From Promethearchaeota archaeon (GTDB taxonomy: Archaea; Asgardarchaeota; Lokiarchaeia; Sigyniarchaeales; SOKP01): a DNA stretch of 11,611 nt. This document shows, in pieces, positions 1 to 9,533 of the stretch. The DNA lies in NCBI GenBank assembly GCA_048938895.1, contig JBHLLU010000093.1:1-11611 (forward strand), given 5' to 3'. How positions within the stretch are numbered: the stretch's first letter is position 1; every line of letters starts with the position of its first letter. The notes beneath the pieces are model-generated. The model searched no databases. It was not told the origin of the DNA and saw only the letters and a program-made list of their open reading frames with translations. A program made the position numbers and the translations under genes.

Positions 1-1
1 T

Positions 2-487
2 TTGCATAAGAACACTCGAAGAATTATATCCCGCTTGATTCTCAACTATATTATTTTCACCAACATCCGATAAATCAACTTTTGATTCAATAAATGTCGA
101 TTCTGACTTCTTGTTCATCATCGCAGCGGCTCTGGCCAAAGCTGGATATGCCATATGAAACCAACCTTTTGCTTTTGGTTTAATATGAGCAATAAAAAGC
201 GTTTTCCCATCGGGAGTGGATGCTCCTACCAAGTGTCCCATTTTTTTACGATTTGTTGCAATAAATCGTTCAGGTTCCATTTGCAATATTGAATATCTTA
301 TACCATCAAGGGTTACAAATTGAGCATTTCCACTGGCCCAATTCGATAGTACTCCTTTTATATCTCTCTTCACATCCCATTTTCCACTGGAATGTAGCAC
401 TTTTCCCTGTCTATCTACTACCGCAACTTGGGATGCGTCAGGATAATGTTTTTGTAATTTATCTACAATGGATTTGATATTTACCAT
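2..487 (-). CDS. Asgard-type profilin-domain protein with C-terminal extension (partial, runs off the left edge)
   Basis: Not in the ORF track. Manual translation from ATG at 487 is open for 162 codons to the window edge: MVNIKSIVDKLQKHYPDASQVAVVDRQGKVLHSSGKWDVKRDIKGVLSNWASGNAQFVTLDGIRYSILQMEPERFIATNRKKMGHLVGASTPDGKTLFIAHIKPKAKGWFHMAYPALARAAAMM-NKKSESTFIESKVDLSDVGENNIVENQAGYNSSSVLMQ... The first ~124 aa follow the Lokiarchaeal profilin pattern as I recall it (AVVDxxGxV...W...; GIxYxI...ERxIxTNxxxxGH; C-terminal helix). Confidence 0.85.
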   Translation of the reverse strand, partial: MVNIKSIVDKLQKHYPDASQVAVVDRQGKVLHSSGKWDVKRDIKGVLSNWASGNAQFVTLDGIRYSILQMEPERFIATNRKKMGHLVGASTPDGKTLFIAHIKPKAKGWFHMAYPALARAAAMMNKKSESTFIESKVDLSDVGENNIVENQAGYNSSSVLMQ

Positions 488-511: not shown

Positions 512-1897
512 TTATATTTTATCAGAATGGTCTATTGCTAATTTTACCCATTTATTTAGCTCTACCAGAAGTTCTTTCTTTTCTTTGGGACTTAATCCTA
601 TATTGGGTTCTGATCGTTGATAAATATTTGCATACTTACTTAGATCCCATAAATAATTTTCATGCAGTACCTTCTTTTTGATATTATTTCGTGCTATATC
701 AAATACTTTTCCAATTGTTATTATATCATAATTTTGTTCAACTATTTTTTTCAAAGTCATCAGGATTTCTAAAACGTTATTATGGGGTATATAGGGGAGA
801 GGCTTTATTTCTACAAAAGGGCGTTTCATGGTTCTAATTTCAAATTCTTCTTGTCTTCTTTGAAACTCAGATATTTCAGGTTGTTTTAGCTTTCCTTCTT
901 CCTTGGATTGGTATAATTTAGTTTTTACTTTTGGTACCCTTCTCTCTAATTCTTCTTTTGTCTGTCTTTTATGATCCATGGACCAGTCTTTAAAGGAATT
1001 CATTCTACTTTCTGCTGAAATAAAAATAGACTCTTTAGGCATTTTTTTATCGGTTCTATCTTCTTCAAGGTTAAATGTAAATGGTCTAGATGATTTTAGT
1101 AGAGGAGCAGAATTTTCAATTATTGAAAAGAGAAACATTGGGTCATAATCAATCGTGGAATAAAGAACTTTTAATTTTATGATATTATCTTTAATCTTTT
1201 TTAATTCAGAATTTGTAAAATGTTCATATAAGTGTCTATCTGCTCCAAAAGTAATACCAAATAACCCCGCTGTAGGATTTAAGTATGATGCCTTAGGTTC
1301 ATATTCCATATCTCCAGAAATCAATATCTTATTATAAGAATCCCATTCTGTGCTTAATAGCATATGACCATTTCTGTTAAATTGAAAAGACTGGGGATCA
1401 CGAATAGTTTCCATAAATTCTAAGAAGATATCTTTATAGGGTATAAACAAATTTCTCATAAGTGTACCTTGGATGAACGTTATTTTGTTTTCTGACTTAA
1501 AAGACATATCAATTGGTACTTTGAATAGATTTTCGCTGACAATTACATCTCTATCGTTTTCTAAGGTAATATTTTTCAAAGTCGCTAGATGATCATATAC
1601 AAAGTCATTTAATATTAACCCTGTCAATTGCCTGTTATCTGTTATATATCTCCCAGATTGTAGTTCAAATTTGACGTAATAGTAACCCAATCCAAATATG
1701 TAATAAAGAGTTCCTCTTTCAGTTGAAACAGCAACCTCGATACCACCTAAGAAAATTACAAGATCTTGAGAAATCTTCGATATCTTGTGATTTGCATAGC
1801 TTCCAAGAGTAGGATATCCTAATAAATTCCCCCAACTAGGGATGACAAAAAACATATTATTTTCGAAAAGATTACGGGCAATGATTTGGGTCGACAT
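512..1897 (-). CDS. Hypothetical cytoplasmic protein (N-terminal globular domain, charged linker, C-terminal helical domain)
   Basis: 461-aa ORF with no TM segment or signal peptide. About 260 aa of aromatic/Gly-rich alpha/beta sequence (IPSWGNLLGYPTLG, YIFGLGYYYVKFELQSG), a K/E/R-rich linker and an ~85-aa amphipathic helical C-terminus. Its stop is 24 bp upstream of the profilin start, which suggests an operon. No family recognised. Confidence 0.85.
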   Translation of the reverse strand: MSTQIIARNLFENNMFFVIPSWGNLLGYPTLGSYANHKISKISQDLVIFLGGIEVAVSTERGTLYYIFGLGYYYVKFELQSGRYITDNRQLTGLILNDFVYDHLATLKNITLENDRDVIVSENLFKVPIDMSFKSENKITFIQGTLMRNLFIPYKDIFLEFMETIRDPQSFQFNRNGHMLLSTEWDSYNKILISGDMEYEPKASYLNPTAGLFGITFGADRHLYEHFTNSELKKIKDNIIKLKVLYSTIDYDPMFLFSIIENSAPLLKSSRPFTFNLEEDRTDKKMPKESIFISAESRMNSFKDWSMDHKRQTKEELERRVPKVKTKLYQSKEEGKLKQPEISEFQRRQEEFEIRTMKRPFVEIKPLPYIPHNNVLEILMTLKKIVEQNYDIITIGKVFDIARNNIKKKVLHENYLWDLSKYANIYQRSEPNIGLSPKEKKELLVELNKWVKLAIDHSDKI

Positions 1898-2015: not shown

Positions 2016-5000
2016 TTAAGATTTCTTTTTGATTTCTGTACCACAGGTAGGACAGAATTCTGCTTCTTCATAGATATATCCATCGCAATTTGAACACTTT
2101 GAAGTATAAATTCCAACATTTTCAGAAAAGATCATTTGATTACCACATGATCCACAGTATTTATTTGATAAATATATTGATTTACCACAATTGTTACACA
2201 CTTTTTTAGAATCTATAAAAGGTAGTTCGATTTCTTCAACTTCTTCTTTTTGACTTTTCCTTTCCATTATGCGATGTATAACGAGAGCAGAAAATCCAGC
2301 AATAATAAAGGGTACAATTACTACTAAAAGTGCCATTCCGGTTTCAGCAGTGAGTAAATTTGTAGTCGAAACAACTCCAATCAACACTGTTACTAAAAAT
2401 GCTATTGTTTTATAACCCATCTGAGTTATTAATCGGGAGGAATTTTGATCTTTTATATAAAGTAATAGATTATCTGAAGCTCCTTGTGTTCGCTGTTCTT
2501 GAACGTTCTTCACTGTTTTTCTTAATTGGAGGTAGGTTGTTATCATTACAAGTACTAATGATGTAAAAAATACACCGAATACAGAAATATATAATTTTGG
2601 GATTGAAATTGTCCCAAGATCATAAGTTTGTTCTATCAAATAATAACGGAACCAAGCTATTTCGTATCCTCTAAACAGAATCATCACAATATTGAGTAAC
2701 ATAAATCCAATTTGGAAAAATTCTAACATGATATTTCGCTTGAATATCTTTTCCAAATAGATATTTAGACTGATATCCCTACTAATAAGGATCATATATC
2801 CGAATATACTTAGAACTAGGCTCGCAGCAAGGAGTAATACTCCTCCTTGTGGATTATAATCAGCAAGTATATAACCCATAAAGAAAACGGATATGGTTAT
2901 AGCTAAGATTCCTAAATAAGCTATGGTAAAAGGTGATGCTCCTGCAGATTGTTTCAAAAGAATTCCTTTTTCATCAGATAGTTCTTTTTTTTTACCAAAT
3001 TGCAAACGTTTTTTCTTAGGTTCTTCTGCACCCTTTTCAATTTTCAATGACTTTTTAGCATATTCTCTGAGAAAAATTTGTTTATATATTACTTCATGGC
3101 TTTTACTTTTCAATTTAATATATCCAAAGGCAACTAGAAACCCTACTACTGCAGCTAATACTACTACAATGATAGATCCAGAGCCAGAAATTGCTAGGCT
3201 TGGAATCTCGGGGTAAAATGAAATTTGCTGAGTATCAAGCAAAATTGTCTGATCACCGAAAATATCATAAAGCAAGACTTCATACATCAGAATTCTAGTA
3301 TCTTCAGGGATGCCTTCTAACGTACCTGTGAATTCAGGACTATTTGGTATTAATTCCAAATAATACCACGTTGTTCCTCCATCAAAGGAGTAGTGGAAAG
3401 TGATGTTTTGTACATATTCTAAATCTGTGTTAATTGATATAATTATCTCGTAATTTTGGGACGAAGAATAGCTATCTGTTTCGTTGAAAAGACCCAAGCT
3501 TTCCCATTCAAAGCGAGGCATATCATAAGTGTAATATAAACTTCCTCGGTCTTCATCATAGACATTTCCTGCAAGGTCAATAGCTTTAATATAGTATTGA
3601 ATCATATTTGTGAGATTATCATGAGGAATTACCGCCAGAAACGTATCTCCTCCAACATTTTCCATCGGAATGATAATCCAATTTCCTAAATCTCTTTTAT
3701 AGTATACGAAGGCAGAAAAACCGACACCATCCGTTATATCTGCTGTTACTTCTACATCTAGTCGTGGTGTTGGAGTAAATGTCCAATTAATATTCGGTTC
3801 TGAAATTTGTGGTGCATTGTAGTCTGCAAAGAACCAACCTTGAGTGTTGATGAAATTACCCGCATCATCTCTAAGATGAAGATTATAGGAATAATTACCT
3901 TCTGAAATATATGACCCAAAATCATCAATTCCATCAAAACTAATTTCTGTATGACTCGCTGAAGAAAGAGTTTCCTTTTTAGTCCGAATTAAACTTCCTT
4001 CACGGCTAAAATATACTTCATAATCATTTCCATCAGATTTCTGAGTCACATAAAAGGTATCAAAAATACTTGATGTAAAAGTTGTTGCATTATTTGAATC
4101 TTTCACCATATATGGACCTGACCATGTTGCTCCTAAGTCAACTGAAACAATTTTTTTAACAGTATAATTAGTCCAACTTCCTGTGGTTTGTTGGTCATGT
4201 ATATATATCATTTTCATTTTAATGAATGGTGGATCTGGAGCTCTGGTAATTAATAATTTCGGCTCTCTAGTGAATGTCCCTACGGGATAAATTGTCCCCG
4301 TCCCTCTAGGATTTCTCCATACTCCAGTTGCAACGTCTAGAGTAGCAACTAAATAATTTGCGACACGAGTACTATTTAAATAGGGTAAAACTACATGTAA
4401 TAAATCATTTTCAGGATCATATGCCATGTCACCCGGTCTGTCGTATACATTCGTAAAGCCGGGTGGATGTACAAGCCATTCTTCAGAAATTTCCCAATTA
4501 AACCCTAAGTCAATCGATTTTAAAACAGTATATAGTGAGGGATAATTTCTATACAACAGAAATAGCGTTCCATTATTTGATAAAACCAATTTCTCAACTT
4601 TATCATTCGTTACTAAATTTGTCATTACTATTGGAGGTTCAAAAAATTCTCCCCCAACAAAACTCCTATATAGGAGATCCTCATTTGTATCCACGTTTCT
4701 CAAATAGATTAAAACCATAGGTCCCCATGCAACACCTTCGTATCTAAAATCTGAACTGTCACTTACAATTCTTGTAATTTCGATTGGATTTGACCAAGTA
4801 ATCCCATTATCATGAGACTTTATTAAATAAACAATTTTTGTACCTAATTCAATTGTGTGATAGAGAATATAGAGTTCGCCTGTATTGGATCTAAAAATCT
4901 TAGGATCTCGTTCATGTAAGTTATTGTTAGTAACTTTTTGCCAGTCGCTTAGACTTGAACCTTGTTTAAAAATTTCTAAATAGGCGGTACATTCCTCTGA

Positions 5001-6605
5001 AGCAAGTAAATCCCACTCAATGTCTTTAAAAGTGATATCACTAGAAAGAGGATTGAAGTAGTGTTTCAATTGCGCATAATCTTCATAATACGGTATATCA
5101 TTATCAATGGTTATATATTTCGTGCTTGAAATTATATCTGTACCATTTTGAGCTCTAAATTCTACCTTTACTGTTGAAATGGTAATAGGATCTATATCAT
5201 TTATTCGACCATTCCAAAATCTCTGCACTGGTTCATCTTTGATAAAGAAACCATTAGATTCCCAAAAGATAGGATTAGTAAGGACATAATATTGATATAC
5301 TTCTGTAAATCCAGTATATGATGCTTCATAGAACAATTGGAATTGATTTCCATCATACATGAAATTTAGAGGAGCATAAGAATGAAACATATTTTCTAAG
5401 ACATCATGATGGCCAAGTGATGTGTTATCCCATGGATTTCCAAAACCCATACAAGTAACATTTAAAACTTCATATGCATCATAAGGATAACTCATACCAA
5501 TTGGATGAATTTGTATCATCCGGAAAAAGGATTTTTCCCAATCATAAAGAAAATCAAAGTTACAATCTTTTCCACTATATGCAACATCAAATGGAACGTT
5601 TGAATATAAACTCTCGTTATCCCCTCCGTTAAACTCCACCCAATCAATATTGAAAGTAAATGTATCATTTGTATACAGCCACGTCAACCAATAATCACCT
5701 GATGTATGATCGACTTGTAATTTAATTTTTCTTATAGAAGTACCATGTGAAATTGATACGTTCTTTGGGACACTCCAAGTCATACCATTATCATGACTTT
5801 CAAAATAGACGATAGGCGTATAGCTAGGGTGGCTTGATTGAGAAATTACGTAAATAGTTTCGTTTTTTAAGATGCATAAGTCGATTTGAGGGATGTAACC
5901 TTTAAATGGATTAAAGAAAAAATTTGCACCAATCTCAGGAGCCTTTATAATTGTTTTTGGTGTATCCCATGTTGTCCCATTGTCAGTAGAGCTTACAAAA
6001 ATTAAATCTGAATAATTATACCAAGAGACAGATCCAATTAAACCGGTTTCAGGGTAAGCAGAGATAGCAGAGCCTCCTAAATCATAGAATAATTCAAGAT
6101 AATCACTCCCTGAAGGGACAAATTCCGCCATTGTTTTTTCCTCCCAATTTTTTCCCTTGTCAATTGAAATTAATAATTTCATTTTGAATGTGCCAATTCT
6201 ATTGATTGTTAAACCCTCGAATTCGATATCTTTTTCTATGTAAGAAACATACCAGAGATTAGAACCACTTGGATTATCGAAAGCAACATTTCCTTCTAGA
6301 TCTATCGTACTTGTTAATTCACTCGGAAAGTTTTCTACTGTTATTGAAAAATTTCCATCTTTATTAGCCGTAAATGAGAAAAAAACATCATCATTTGAGC
6401 CAGGAGATGCCTCAGGAGAGATATAATATGTGGATGCTCCAAATTCTTGGACTAACATGAAAGGTTCATTTGATAAACTTAAATCTTCTACATATAAATA
6501 TTGATTTGTACTATCTTTTTTATTATTCAAAACTCCCAAACTTAGAATACTTGGAATTATCATTAAAAGTAATAGTAAAATTGAACCCATTGTGTTTTTT
6601 TTCAT
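2016..6605 (-). CDS. Large cell-surface multi-pass membrane protein: 2 BNR/Asp-box (sialidase-like) propellers, FlgD-type/Ig-like domains, ~7 TM, C-terminal double zinc ribbon
   Basis: N-terminal signal peptide/anchor MKKNTMGSILLLLLMIIPSILSLG. Asp boxes SIDKGKNW, STDNGTTW, SHDNGMTW, SHDNGITW, SIDLGFNW, SVDLGATW, SFDGGTTW. FlgD-Ig motif ISFDGIDDFGSYISEGNYSYNL. Ig-like ends DDAGN, AIDLAGN, YDIFGD. Many N-x-S/T sequons. Seven hydrophobic segments at ~2270-3180 and four CxxC motifs (CNNC, CGSC, CSNC, CPTC). Confidence 0.9.
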   Translation of the reverse strand: MKKNTMGSILLLLLMIIPSILSLGVLNNKKDSTNQYLYVEDLSLSNEPFMLVQEFGASTYYISPEASPGSNDDVFFSFTANKDGNFSITVENFPSELTSTIDLEGNVAFDNPSGSNLWYVSYIEKDIEFEGLTINRIGTFKMKLLISIDKGKNWEEKTMAEFVPSGSDYLELFYDLGGSAISAYPETGLIGSVSWYNYSDLIFVSSTDNGTTWDTPKTIIKAPEIGANFFFNPFKGYIPQIDLCILKNETIYVISQSSHPSYTPIVYFESHDNGMTWSVPKNVSISHGTSIRKIKLQVDHTSGDYWLTWLYTNDTFTFNIDWVEFNGGDNESLYSNVPFDVAYSGKDCNFDFLYDWEKSFFRMIQIHPIGMSYPYDAYEVLNVTCMGFGNPWDNTSLGHHDVLENMFHSYAPLNFMYDGNQFQLFYEASYTGFTEVYQYYVLTNPIFWESNGFFIKDEPVQRFWNGRINDIDPITISTVKVEFRAQNGTDIISSTKYITIDNDIPYYEDYAQLKHYFNPLSSDITFKDIEWDLLASEECTAYLEIFKQGSSLSDWQKVTNNNLHERDPKIFRSNTGELYILYHTIELGTKIVYLIKSHDNGITWSNPIEITRIVSDSSDFRYEGVAWGPMVLIYLRNVDTNEDLLYRSFVGGEFFEPPIVMTNLVTNDKVEKLVLSNNGTLFLLYRNYPSLYTVLKSIDLGFNWEISEEWLVHPPGFTNVYDRPGDMAYDPENDLLHVVLPYLNSTRVANYLVATLDVATGVWRNPRGTGTIYPVGTFTREPKLLITRAPDPPFIKMKMIYIHDQQTTGSWTNYTVKKIVSVDLGATWSGPYMVKDSNNATTFTSSIFDTFYVTQKSDGNDYEVYFSREGSLIRTKKETLSSASHTEISFDGIDDFGSYISEGNYSYNLHLRDDAGNFINTQGWFFADYNAPQISEPNINWTFTPTPRLDVEVTADITDGVGFSAFVYYKRDLGNWIIIPMENVGGDTFLAVIPHDNLTNMIQYYIKAIDLAGNVYDEDRGSLYYTYDMPRFEWESLGLFNETDSYSSSQNYEIIISINTDLEYVQNITFHYSFDGGTTWYYLELIPNSPEFTGTLEGIPEDTRILMYEVLLYDIFGDQTILLDTQQISFYPEIPSLAISGSGSIIVVVLAAVVGFLVAFGYIKLKSKSHEVIYKQIFLREYAKKSLKIEKGAEEPKKKRLQFGKKKELSDEKGILLKQSAGASPFTIAYLGILAITISVFFMGYILADYNPQGGVLLLAASLVLSIFGYMILISRDISLNIYLEKIFKRNIMLEFFQIGFMLLNIVMILFRGYEIAWFRYYLIEQTYDLGTISIPKLYISVFGVFFTSLVLVMITTYLQLRKTVKNVQEQRTQGASDNLLLYIKDQNSSRLITQMGYKTIAFLVTVLIGVVSTTNLLTAETGMALLVVIVPFIIAGFSALVIHRIMERKSQKEEVEEIELPFIDSKKVCNNCGKSIYLSNKYCGSCGNQMIFSENVGIYTSKCSNCDGYIYEEAEFCPTCGTEIKKKS

Positions 6606-6745: not shown

Positions 6746-7858
6746 TTAGAAATTTTTACTTTGTACTAGTGCTGCTTTCAGAGATTCTGCTAATTTATCA
6801 AGCTTATTTGCTGTTGCTGCTATTTCTTCCATTGAAGCTGTTTGTTCCTCAGCACTGGCATTAATTCCTTCCATTGATTGGGATACAGTTCTTATTTTGT
6901 AAATAATATCATTAATATTTGTATCTGTGCTTGATATTGCATTCTTTGAGTTTTCTGCTAATTTTCTTACTTCACTAGCTACAATGGCAAATCCTCGGCC
7001 ATGAGCTCCAGCTCTACCTGCTTCTATACTTGCATTCAAAGCGAGTAAATTAGTTTGGTCAGAAATCGAGGTAATAATGTTCATAATATTCTGTATTTTA
7101 TTTGATAAATTCATTACCTCTTCTGTTGTCGAAGCAGCTTCTTGAGTAGAAGATGATATCTGCTCTGAAGCTGCATTTACTTCGCTTGCACTAGCAGATA
7201 ATTCAGTTGCTATATTTGATACATTTATACTCATTTGAGTTGCACTTTCAATGATAGAGGTTAAAGAATTATTCATTTGATGAATTCTATGTTCAATAAT
7301 AGCAACCAATCCCATTACAAGATAAATAGTATCCATATATACCATAGCAAAATGACTGAATTCGGTTTGGCTTGTTCCAGAAGTTCCAATCATTGCACTG
7401 AGTAAGCTTAAAATTGCACCTACAAATTGTAAACAATAAAATGCATGAAAAAGAGATCTTTTCTTAATGTATAACCGAATAACTAATACAAAGCAAACCA
7501 GTATAAGACCCATCATCATATAATAGAAACCAAAAGTCACTCCCCCCATAAGAGCAGCAGTGTATTTAACTTTTATATTTTTCACGTTCTTTATTTTTAT
7601 GAATGTTTGATAATATTCTCGAATTACTGCGTAAAATAATATGAATGTACCTGAGGAGAAAAAAATCATTGCAACCGGATTCACTTGGTTTGCTTCTTCC
7701 ATCGGAATCGCATTTATAATATAACCAATGGTTGTTATAAGACATGACATGAACCAAAGTTTTATATCTCTTCTTTTTGTATAAGCTACGAAGAATATAC
7801 CAGAAGCGAAACACATAATTGTGGCATGTAATATATTTATCAAACTGAGAACAGGCAT
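6746..7858 (-). CDS. Methyl-accepting chemotaxis protein (multi-TM sensor, short MCPsignal hairpin)
   Basis: MCP signature [38 protein letters not shown]. Methylation-type motifs ASEQISSS and [10 protein letters not shown]. The N-terminal ~188 aa hold 6-7 TM segments. Confidence 0.93.
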
Positions 7859-8387: not shown

Positions 8388-9533
8388 TTAGGAAATTGTA
8401 TTTTTTACTAGTGATTCTTTCAGATTATCTGCCAGTTTATCTAGCTTATTTGCGGTAAGGGCAATTTCTTCTAGTGAAGTTGTCTGTTCTTCTGCTGAAG
8501 TGTTGATTCCTTTCATGGCGTCGGAAACTCTTTGAATTTTATTTACAATCTCATCGATCTCTGTACCCGTTTCTGAAACAGCATTTTTAGAAGTTTCAGC
8601 GAGTTTTCTTACTTCACTTGCTACGACCCCAAATCCACGACCATGTATGCCTGCTCTTCCAGCTTCAATACTAGCATTTAATGCAAGTAAATTTGTTTGG
8701 TCAGAAATCCCTGTTAAGATATTCATTATTTTTCTAATATTATTAGATAAATTCATAATCTCCTCGGCTATTTTAAAAGCTTCTTGGGTCGAGGATGAGA
8801 TTTGTTCTGATGCAGCATTTATTTCACTTGCACCAGCCGCCAACTCTGTCGCAATATTCGATACATTAATACTAGCTGAAGAGCTCTCTGATAATAATTT
8901 TTTCAATGAATTTTGAAATTTCTCAGTTTGTAATTCTAATAAAGCAACAAGCCCAGTTATTAACATCAAAGACACAAATATAATTGTCATTCCTAAGCCA
9001 AATTCATTGGTTTCGGTTAAGTTTAGATCCCTTAAAGTAGAGGAAAGGATTGTTAGAATTGCTGCAAATAGAGTTAAAATAAAGAATGCATAGGTGGGGG
9101 ATCGATTTTTCCAATATAATCTGAATTGCATAATTAAACTAGCTATTGCAAGAATGAGGATAAGGAATTCAGCACCTAATATTATAGGCAATATTGAAAA
9201 CATAGAAAGTTTCTTCATTTCGATAGATTGTTTACTCAAATTTGGTTTAATGAATACTGAATAATATTCTCGAGAAATTCCTGCGAAAATGAATATTATT
9301 GCAAGAACAAAAAGAATATTCATTATTATACTTCCTGTCTCTCCTACATATCTATGAAATGTACTAAGTAACTGACCTGTCATGACCAAAAAATAAGATG
9401 GAAGCCATTTTAATAAGTCTTTACGCTTTCTACAAACCCAAATAAAAATCATGGTTGCTATTACAATGATTGTCGTAGCTTGGTTATCTATTATTGTAAA
9501 ATTGGTTTCTACCATATTATATTCCAAGATCAT
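8388..9533 (-). CDS. Methyl-accepting chemotaxis protein, paralogue of 6746..7858
   Basis: MCP signature [38 protein letters not shown]. Same multi-TM N-terminus with the shared REYYxxFIK motif. The start could alternatively be the ATG at 9515. Confidence 0.93.

Follow-up and report, generated by a model that had tools for sequence, protein, structure and literature searches.

A basic profilin with a conserved C-terminal tail domain, predicted to self-pair, in a lokiarchaeal genome

What is encoded by a reading frame that begins like a profilin and then runs off the end of its contig? The window, that is the whole stretch of 11,611 nucleotides analyzed here, is an entire contig (C32) of a Promethearchaeota genome (G000) of 4.65 Mb in 174 contigs. 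A preliminary description made from the letters of this DNA had noticed an open frame of at least 162 codons at its edge, with a profilin fold over the first ~124 aa and an acidic/polar linker without stop behind it, and had read it as a fused or extended paralogue. This reading was borne out, as the protein consists of a profilin domain, a linker and a conserved tail.

Reading frame across a contig junction

The frame starts with ATG, is open at its 3' end and runs for 162 codons without a stop, and the forward strand across the same positions contains many stops. Because the window comprises all of C32, the profilin frame leaves over the contig edge. Extended leftwards through an overlap with contig C148, it adds 57 residues before a stop at C148:4474-4476. 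Overlaps of 77 bases join 204 of the 348 contig ends in the same assembly, and this particular 77-mer has two occurrences in the genome. Support for the junction comes from database record P0006, whose 219 aa begin with the 162 aa of the window and finish with the piece from C148, although this record could stem from the same organism. The full protein thus has 219 aa. The frame does not stop just past the edge without a further conserved domain, as the preliminary description had considered; the additional residues hold the conserved tail.

Table 1 Features of the tailed profilin gene and of related loci in the same genome. Positions are those of the window unless a contig or locus is given.
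Feature	Position	Strand	Basis or remark
5' part (codons 1-162) of the 219-codon tailed profilin gene	2..487	-	frame, overlap, record P0006
Profilin domain, residues 1-126	110..487	-	homology, AlphaFold2 model, structure searches; basic, no Loki-loop
Three-strand motif, residues 57-80, actin-contacting element of profilins	248..319	-	mean column conservation 0.91
KPKAKGWFH, residues 103-111, subtype-specific basic/aromatic loop opening the C-terminal helix	155..181	-	K105, W109 and H111 invariant in 121 sequences
Linker, residues 127-162, variable, predicted disordered	2..109	-	pLDDT <50; dN/dS 0.45
77-base assembly overlap	1..77	.	window start identical to the last 77 bases of C148; gene continues through it
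3' part with tail domain (residues 165-219) and stop	C148:4474-4646 (locus L001), off window	-	frame continuation
Upstream co-oriented 461-aa gene	512..1897	-	24 nt before the profilin start
Second tailed profilin P0127, 210 aa, acidic	L002:4965-5597 (G000:C39)		TFIIB-like and C2H2 zinc-finger genes nearby
Free tail-like microprotein P0128, 53 aa	L037:3686-3847 (G000:C123:40685-40846)	-	divergent from a DnaJ-zinc-finger-like gene
Canonical Loki-type profilin	L003:3797-4207 (C44)		Loki-loop, single domain

Related genomes carry intact open frames of about 210-310 codons, and among the matches listed the homologues are of near length, with 209-269 aa in about 118/119 others and exceptions of 120 and 143 aa. 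Head and tail are under purifying selection, with dN/dS of 0.098 and 0.153, respectively, compared to 0.448 for the linker (CDS from 20 of 28 loci; pairs with pS of 0.05-0.6), and the gene is not a chance frame. A promoter scan stayed at chance level (11 found vs 11.4 expected) and was of bacterial type, hence it was left unused.

The co-oriented gene for a 461-aa protein is a possible operon partner, lying 1-56 nt upstream in 24 of the 34 loci examined, own locus included. Its product has no Pfam match and nothing above 0.77 in the ESM Atlas. A 648-aa paralogue with 49% identity is encoded at L139:3463-5409 (G000:C140) and has long charged repeats at both ends. The window further encodes, on the reverse strand, a membrane-anchored protein of 1529 aa (2016-6605), in which BNR/Asp-box repeats are combined with several predicted transmembrane stretches and, at the C-terminus, a double zinc ribbon. 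Also on this strand are two tandem methyl-accepting chemotaxis-like proteins (6746-7858 and 8388-9533), each with a hydrophobic N-terminal half and a short signaling domain.

Fold, conserved face and charge of the profilin head

By sequence and fold the head belongs to the Asgard profilin family. Using phmmer against PDB sequences we obtained the Odin profilin first (5zza, E 2.7e-9; 5yed follows at 2.3e-7), and the only sequences at E<0.001 were the Odin, Loki-1, Loki-2 and Thor profilins. A profile of 121 sequences gave just four PDB matches at E≤0.01, the same four Asgard profilins. The AlphaFold2 model of the full-length protein (mean pLDDT 80.5, pTM 0.56) displays the profilin domain at residues 1-126, an unresolved linker with pLDDT below 50 at 127-162 and helices at 168-182, 187-196 and 200-218. 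In Foldseek the top match is again the Odin profilin (5zza_P, E 6e-11, TM 0.90, rmsd 1.7), every row down to rank 37 is a profilin and roadblocks begin at rank 38. VIA ranks profilins at positions 1-10, with Z 20.2 for Odin (rmsd 1.5, 118 aligned) and 18.8 for Loki-1, compared to 13.2 for the best roadblock and at most 9.9 for GAF-like matches. The head model (H43-52, E57-60, E63-70, E74-78) contains three strands in place of half the central helix, a motif that in the accessible text of Tran et al. (PMC10933270) is both the actin contact and the distinction between profilins and roadblocks. A roadblock/LC7, longin or GAF domain, in which the central helix would be uninterrupted, was rejected on this motif and on the Z scores.

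Neither the window piece (P0001) nor P0006 matches Pfam PF00235 at the gathering score. The canonical Loki-type profilin of the genome stays below the cut-off of 25 bits as well (21.8 bits), and the tailed relative P0227 passes with 27.1 bits. In the ESM Atlas the closest clusters consist of Promethearchaeota proteins of 189-214 aa without a name, and the first named match is a profilin at 0.89. The Loki-loop, whose absence had been predicted together with the fold, is indeed missing, as the head has six residues fewer than the canonical copy before FVTLDG. W37, taken as the equivalent of Heimdall W53, is invariant, and the end of the last helix is without an aromatic residue. Loki and Odin profilins are described as not binding polyproline in the portion of the literature available, and the polyproline pocket is for this reason not defining for Asgard members. 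The protein lies outside the Loki-1/-2 subtype and outside the single-domain form: characterized Asgard profilins are single domains of about 120-148 aa, whereas this one has 219 aa and a second folded domain. To the extent that fold and conservation allow a judgement, its way of working is that of a profilin.

Conservation is unevenly distributed over the head, with a column mean of 0.91 in the three-strand motif and 0.94 in the loop and C-terminal helix compared to 0.66-0.83 elsewhere. We take the C-terminal helix region to be where human His119, Lys125 and Tyr128 map. These three are among the actin-binding residues that the accessible text of PMC2694148 gives for human profilin. The most conserved parts of the head are thus those that make up the actin-facing side of profilins. 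The WFH loop is two residues longer, at the site where characterized profilins contact actin, and this could block or redirect actin binding. Its motif K.KGW.H is found in 115 of 124 homologues and in 0 of 56 members of another tailed group.

Residues 1-125 have a net charge of +10 and a pI of 10.1, and the head charge in 124 homologues has a median of +11 (range 5-14), with 18 positions occupied by K or R in at least 70% of 121 rows. The other profilin heads of the genome are acidic (-4 in the second tailed, -7 in the canonical and -9 in the short copy). Of the basic/aromatic patch KPKAKGWFH, pointed out in the preliminary description, the presence at residues 103-111 stands, but the whole head is basic and not one patch alone. 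In a tree of 32 rows the basic proteins form a clade with support of 100/99, and a sister member from genome G009 is acidic; the basic surface is, by this phylogeny, derived. The same tree separates tailed profilins and related fusions from canonical and short copies at 99/99, with long branches that make the placement less sure. Of the 161 genomes of the class, 88 have a close orthologue (E≤4e-35, the next match being at 2.5e-24), and 86 of those 88 belong to the same family as G000. A second and apparently independent basic head (+13) is present in P0177, a protein of another tailed clade.

From the conserved face we lean towards a head that binds actin, and for lipid, suggested by the basic surface, we see the chances as even. 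A Lokiactin co-IP from Ca. Lokiarchaeum ossiferum, as far as given in the accessible part of PMC13716822, bears on the first point. B35_Pro2 (14.47 kDa) was enriched in the Lokiactin co-IP (log2 1.07, adjusted p 0.015), whereas B35_Pro1 (UYP46361.1, 22.82 kDa) was not significantly so (log2 0.31, adjusted p 0.27), and the latter is abundant, with rank 267 in the proteome sheet (3,061 expressed proteins by the paper's count). The tailed proteins have 22.2-25.0 kDa (n=50 full-length) and single-domain profilins 13.8-14.5 kDa; by mass alone B35_Pro1 is probably tailed, and it need not be of the basic subtype. The supplementary discussion of that paper concerns B35_Pro2 only and describes no tail. 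If B35_Pro1 is tailed, the result speaks against Lokiactin binding, but a co-IP weighted towards filaments may miss a protein that binds monomers.

The head may instead have left actin regulation and be specialized for phospholipid or for another protein such as the upstream 461-aa product, with the tail still dimerizing. Such a shift would fit the derived basic surface with its acidic sister in G009, the motif confined to this subtype among the tailed groups compared, the gene linked upstream and the missing Lokiactin enrichment of the probably tailed B35_Pro1. It also has a precedent in PFN4, according to the accessible text of PMC2694148, and in the poxvirus profilin, which is known from a reference title there. 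However, the three-strand motif can still be aligned with Loki and Odin profilins and ranks with the best-conserved parts of the head, whereas PFN4 is described in the same source as having lost actin-site residues. Moreover, the upstream gene is not beside the profilin in 10 of the 34 loci; for L006-L035 the sequence covered extends no more than 1.5 kb beyond the match. Overall, we regard a departure from actin as unlikely and continue with a head that binds actin.

Distribution and predicted pairing of the tail domain

The preceding linker is as acidic and polar as had been described, with a net charge of -2 over residues 126-164. In the relatives P0002-P0005 and P0177, lysine-rich linker expansions lead to proteins of 285-321 aa. 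The tail that follows comprises 55 aa (residues 165-219) in three helices with a net charge of -4, and folded alone it reaches a pLDDT of 95. Of 124 homologues 121 carry the tail, and the other three are 120, 143 and 269 aa long. Small helical domains for docking or dimerization include RIIa/Dpy-30, SARAH and the villin headpiece. Neither the tail nor the free mini-protein of 53 aa matches a Pfam family at cut-off. Against PDB sequences the tail profile gave a best E of 0.16, with matches that are repeat-driven or weak, and searches with the fold returned 0 matches in Foldseek and a best Z of 5.5 (rmsd 3.3) in VIA, which shows neither a new nor a known fold.

With its own tail as query we found the domain in 147 of 400 Asgard genomes, all within the same order (147 of 154 genomes; three hits are weak, E 6e-5 to 1e-3), and this query found it in 0 of 246 other Asgard genomes. 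A profile search gave none in seven genomes of the other orders of the class. The tail thus appears to be an order-restricted module. A profile search of the genome itself yields three copies, in the L001 gene, in the second tailed profilin (C39) and in the free 53-aa protein (C123), and in a sample of 61 genomes 52 of the 54 positive ones have 2-4 copies. The mini-protein is 60-96% identical over most of the family. As a query it detects 147 of 161 genomes of the class, a count that includes cross-hits to tails, and among the matches listed all but eight lie in open frames of 42-87 codons. It detects nothing in 4 of 4 genomes of family f4 (63-88% complete), though this family has tailed profilins. 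Loci L119-L121 of family f3 have neighbors like those of the second tailed profilin, namely TFIIB-like and C2H2 zinc-finger genes.

Searching 1.84 billion representatives with the tail profile we obtained 64 matches at E≤0.001. P0185, P0242 and P0244 were dropped as spurious because the tail profile finds no tail domain in them. The remaining 61 comprise 24 with profilin, four with a Ras domain and one with LRRs, the others being mostly short proteins or fragments; among the four Ras-domain matches, one also has a gelsolin repeat and one is counted among the 24. Among the matches listed in 61 genomes the fusions amount to one Ras and one zinc-ribbon protein. The Ras fusions resemble the tail of the second paralogue, and the fusion in genome G145 retains a profilin remnant. 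This remnant and the single Ras fusion among the matches listed weaken the idea of the tail as a stable part of Ras-like GTPases, and the fusions rather look like sporadic recent shuffling without a conserved architecture. Sporadic tail-bearing fusions are L135:981-2039 (G145), L134:91-2277 (G081), P0202, P0219, P0221, P0233 and P0197, with Ras-like GTPases (one with a gelsolin repeat), zinc-ribbon, LRR and a permuted tail-before-profilin type with a polyproline stretch.

Profilin-like domains also occur in other contexts. The locus L004:3181-5898 (G000:C99) carries a second gene for actin, which has 79% identity to the Lokiactin-like one truncated on C58. Immediately downstream of it a fusion of profilin with a TrmB HTH (417 aa) is encoded, and the profilin part of this fusion clusters with the acidic tailed paralogue and has the PY[LM]D motif in common with it. 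L036:3823-5373 (G000:C125) encodes 516 aa with an HTH, a weak internal profilin-like region (E 1.6e-5) and an LRR. At the end of contig C130 (L038:2778-3065) a truncated, weakly profilin-like frame (E 0.006) adjoins genes that read by sequence as proteasome-alpha-like and SBDS-like. A fusion of profilin with a leucine carboxyl methyltransferase (LCM) is found at L109:1950-3212 (G006) and L111 (G038), including in a family without the tail.

A survey of Asgard profilins with AlphaFold has reportedly been published by Ponlachantra et al. in BioEssays in 2023. The accessible text of the Asgard profilin and actin literature (PMC13716822, PMC9834061, PMC12993045, PMC8410842, PMC9433394, PMC10933270, PMC12962969, PMC2694148, bioRxiv 10.64898/2026.10.28.762692 and bioRxiv 10.1101/2020.10.19.343400) does not describe any profilin that carries a folded tail at its C-terminus, while supplementary catalogue tables may list the family and Ponlachantra 2023, Akil 2021 and Akil and Robinson 2018 may have it.

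Two copies of residues 165-219 were modeled together and scored 0.56 compared to 0.02 for the best of three controls, with at least 97% of contacts in agreement between runs and a pLDDT of 86. Among proteins solved as pairs 20 of 30 reach the mark for pairing, and among those solved as single chains 1 of 23 does (rough counts, own alignment used); since there are only 23 monomer controls, up to 19 in 100 monomers may pass it. The score expresses model confidence only, and because the alignment mixed three tail classes, homo- and hetero-pairing are not separable and the signal could come from hetero-pairs. PDB sequence profile, Foldseek and VIA found no solved structure similar enough to explain the pass. 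The predicted interface covers 32 of 55 tail positions and includes 16 of the 17 that are hydrophobic in at least 90% of 47 tails from three classes, the sole exception being the invariant W180. The model supports, but does not demonstrate, an intertwined dimer, and we consider it probable that the tail forms a homodimer.

The tail could also be a hetero-docking tag whose main partner is the mini-protein or else the tail on the acidic second profilin, such that the working unit is a mixed complex. The multiple copies of the module in this and nearly all positive genomes of the sample, the strong conservation of the mini-protein, mostly in short frames of its own among the matches listed, and the interface hydrophobics common to all three classes are consistent with this. 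However, the homodimer reached the mark alone, and family f4 has tailed profilins while the mini-protein query stays empty there; a mainly mixed complex seems improbable to us. An autoinhibited single chain, with the acidic tail (-4) folded back onto the basic head (+10) by means of the long flexible linker, is very improbable, as the same tail is found on acidic heads and as a free protein, the full-length model has a pTM of 0.56 with an unresolved linker and the conserved hydrophobics of the tail are consumed by the predicted dimer. Hardly credible at all is an extension that is an assembly artefact, or a head that is a roadblock, longin or GAF domain: the gene does cross a contig end, lacks a PF00235 match and shares its core fold with roadblocks (Z 13.2), but the full-length record, the near-length homologues and the intact frames in related genomes rule out the artefact, profilins lead both structure searches and the canonical profilin falls below the same Pfam cut-off.

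Proposed mechanism and comparison with known profilins

Together, a tail predicted to dimerize and a head that may bind actin suggest a bivalent, two-headed profilin, a model that we put forward tentatively, at slightly less than an even chance. The tail would pair the protein into an intertwined homodimer, whose flexible linkers would allow the two heads to move freely. The basic surface of the heads would hold the dimer on anionic membrane lipids, while their conserved face would bind Lokiactin monomers, and dimerization would add avidity and build up profilin-actin locally at the membrane. With copies of this tail also in the acidic second profilin and in the free 53-aa protein, mixed pairs may form, and the mini-protein may compete for the tail and thereby titrate the dimer. 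The accessible text of PMC9433394 and PMC8410842 describes actin binding by Asgard profilins as well as their inhibition by phospholipids. A basic pI, on the other hand, does not guarantee lipid binding, since PFN3 (pI 9.5) did not bind phosphatidic acid according to the accessible part of PMC2694148.

Actin is regulated by Asgard profilins in vitro, but how profilin-actin reaches growing filaments is an open question in Asgard archaea, because nucleation machineries, like polyproline-based recruiters, are reported as not found there in the available text of PMC9433394. A dimeric, basic and tethered profilin with a free competitor module would be a small, expressible candidate for the missing recruitment layer. 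More speculatively, and in our view doubtful, the 55-aa module could be an order-specific dimerization code of the Loki actin system, joining basic profilin, acidic profilin and occasionally Ras-like GTPases in homo- or hetero-pairs. These pairs would deliver two actin monomers at the membrane as an archaeal substitute for formin/VASP-type polyproline recruitment and would be switched off by the 53-aa competitor. In a cultured Lokiarchaeon a profilin with the expected mass is already known to be abundant, which makes the idea testable biochemically and in cells. The tailed profilin is lineage-restricted and therefore informs on the elaboration of the Loki cytoskeleton rather than directly on the eukaryotic ancestor.

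Comparison to known profilins reveals that the Odin profilin (PDB 5ZZA chain P, with rabbit actin) is the closest by both sequence and structure. Both are without the Loki-loop and keep the three-strand motif and the G-H motif, but the Odin protein is a single domain of 121 aa, while the tailed protein adds the linker, the 55-aa tail, strong basicity and an extended KAKGWFH loop ahead of the last helix. Loki profilin-1 and -2 (5YED, 5YEE, 5ZZB) and the canonical copy share the fold (TM 0.79-0.81, Z 18.8) and the lineage, yet all of them are single domains with the Loki-loop, and this genome's canonical copy has an acidic pI of 4.6. B35_Pro1 of Ca. Lokiarchaeum ossiferum has the mass of a tailed profilin and is likened to it by mass alone. 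The Thor and Heimdall profilins (7PBH and 6YRR, Z 14.7 and 12.2) are extended Asgard profilins as well; their extension, as far as described in the accessible literature, is a short disordered N-terminal stretch, whereas here it is a folded, conserved C-terminal domain. Finally, mammalian PFN4, specialized for lipids according to the accessible text of PMC2694148, and the poxvirus profilin are likewise basic and divergent. This is a functional analogy only. Both are single domains, and PFN4 has lost the actin site, while the corresponding face of the tailed profilin is highly conserved.
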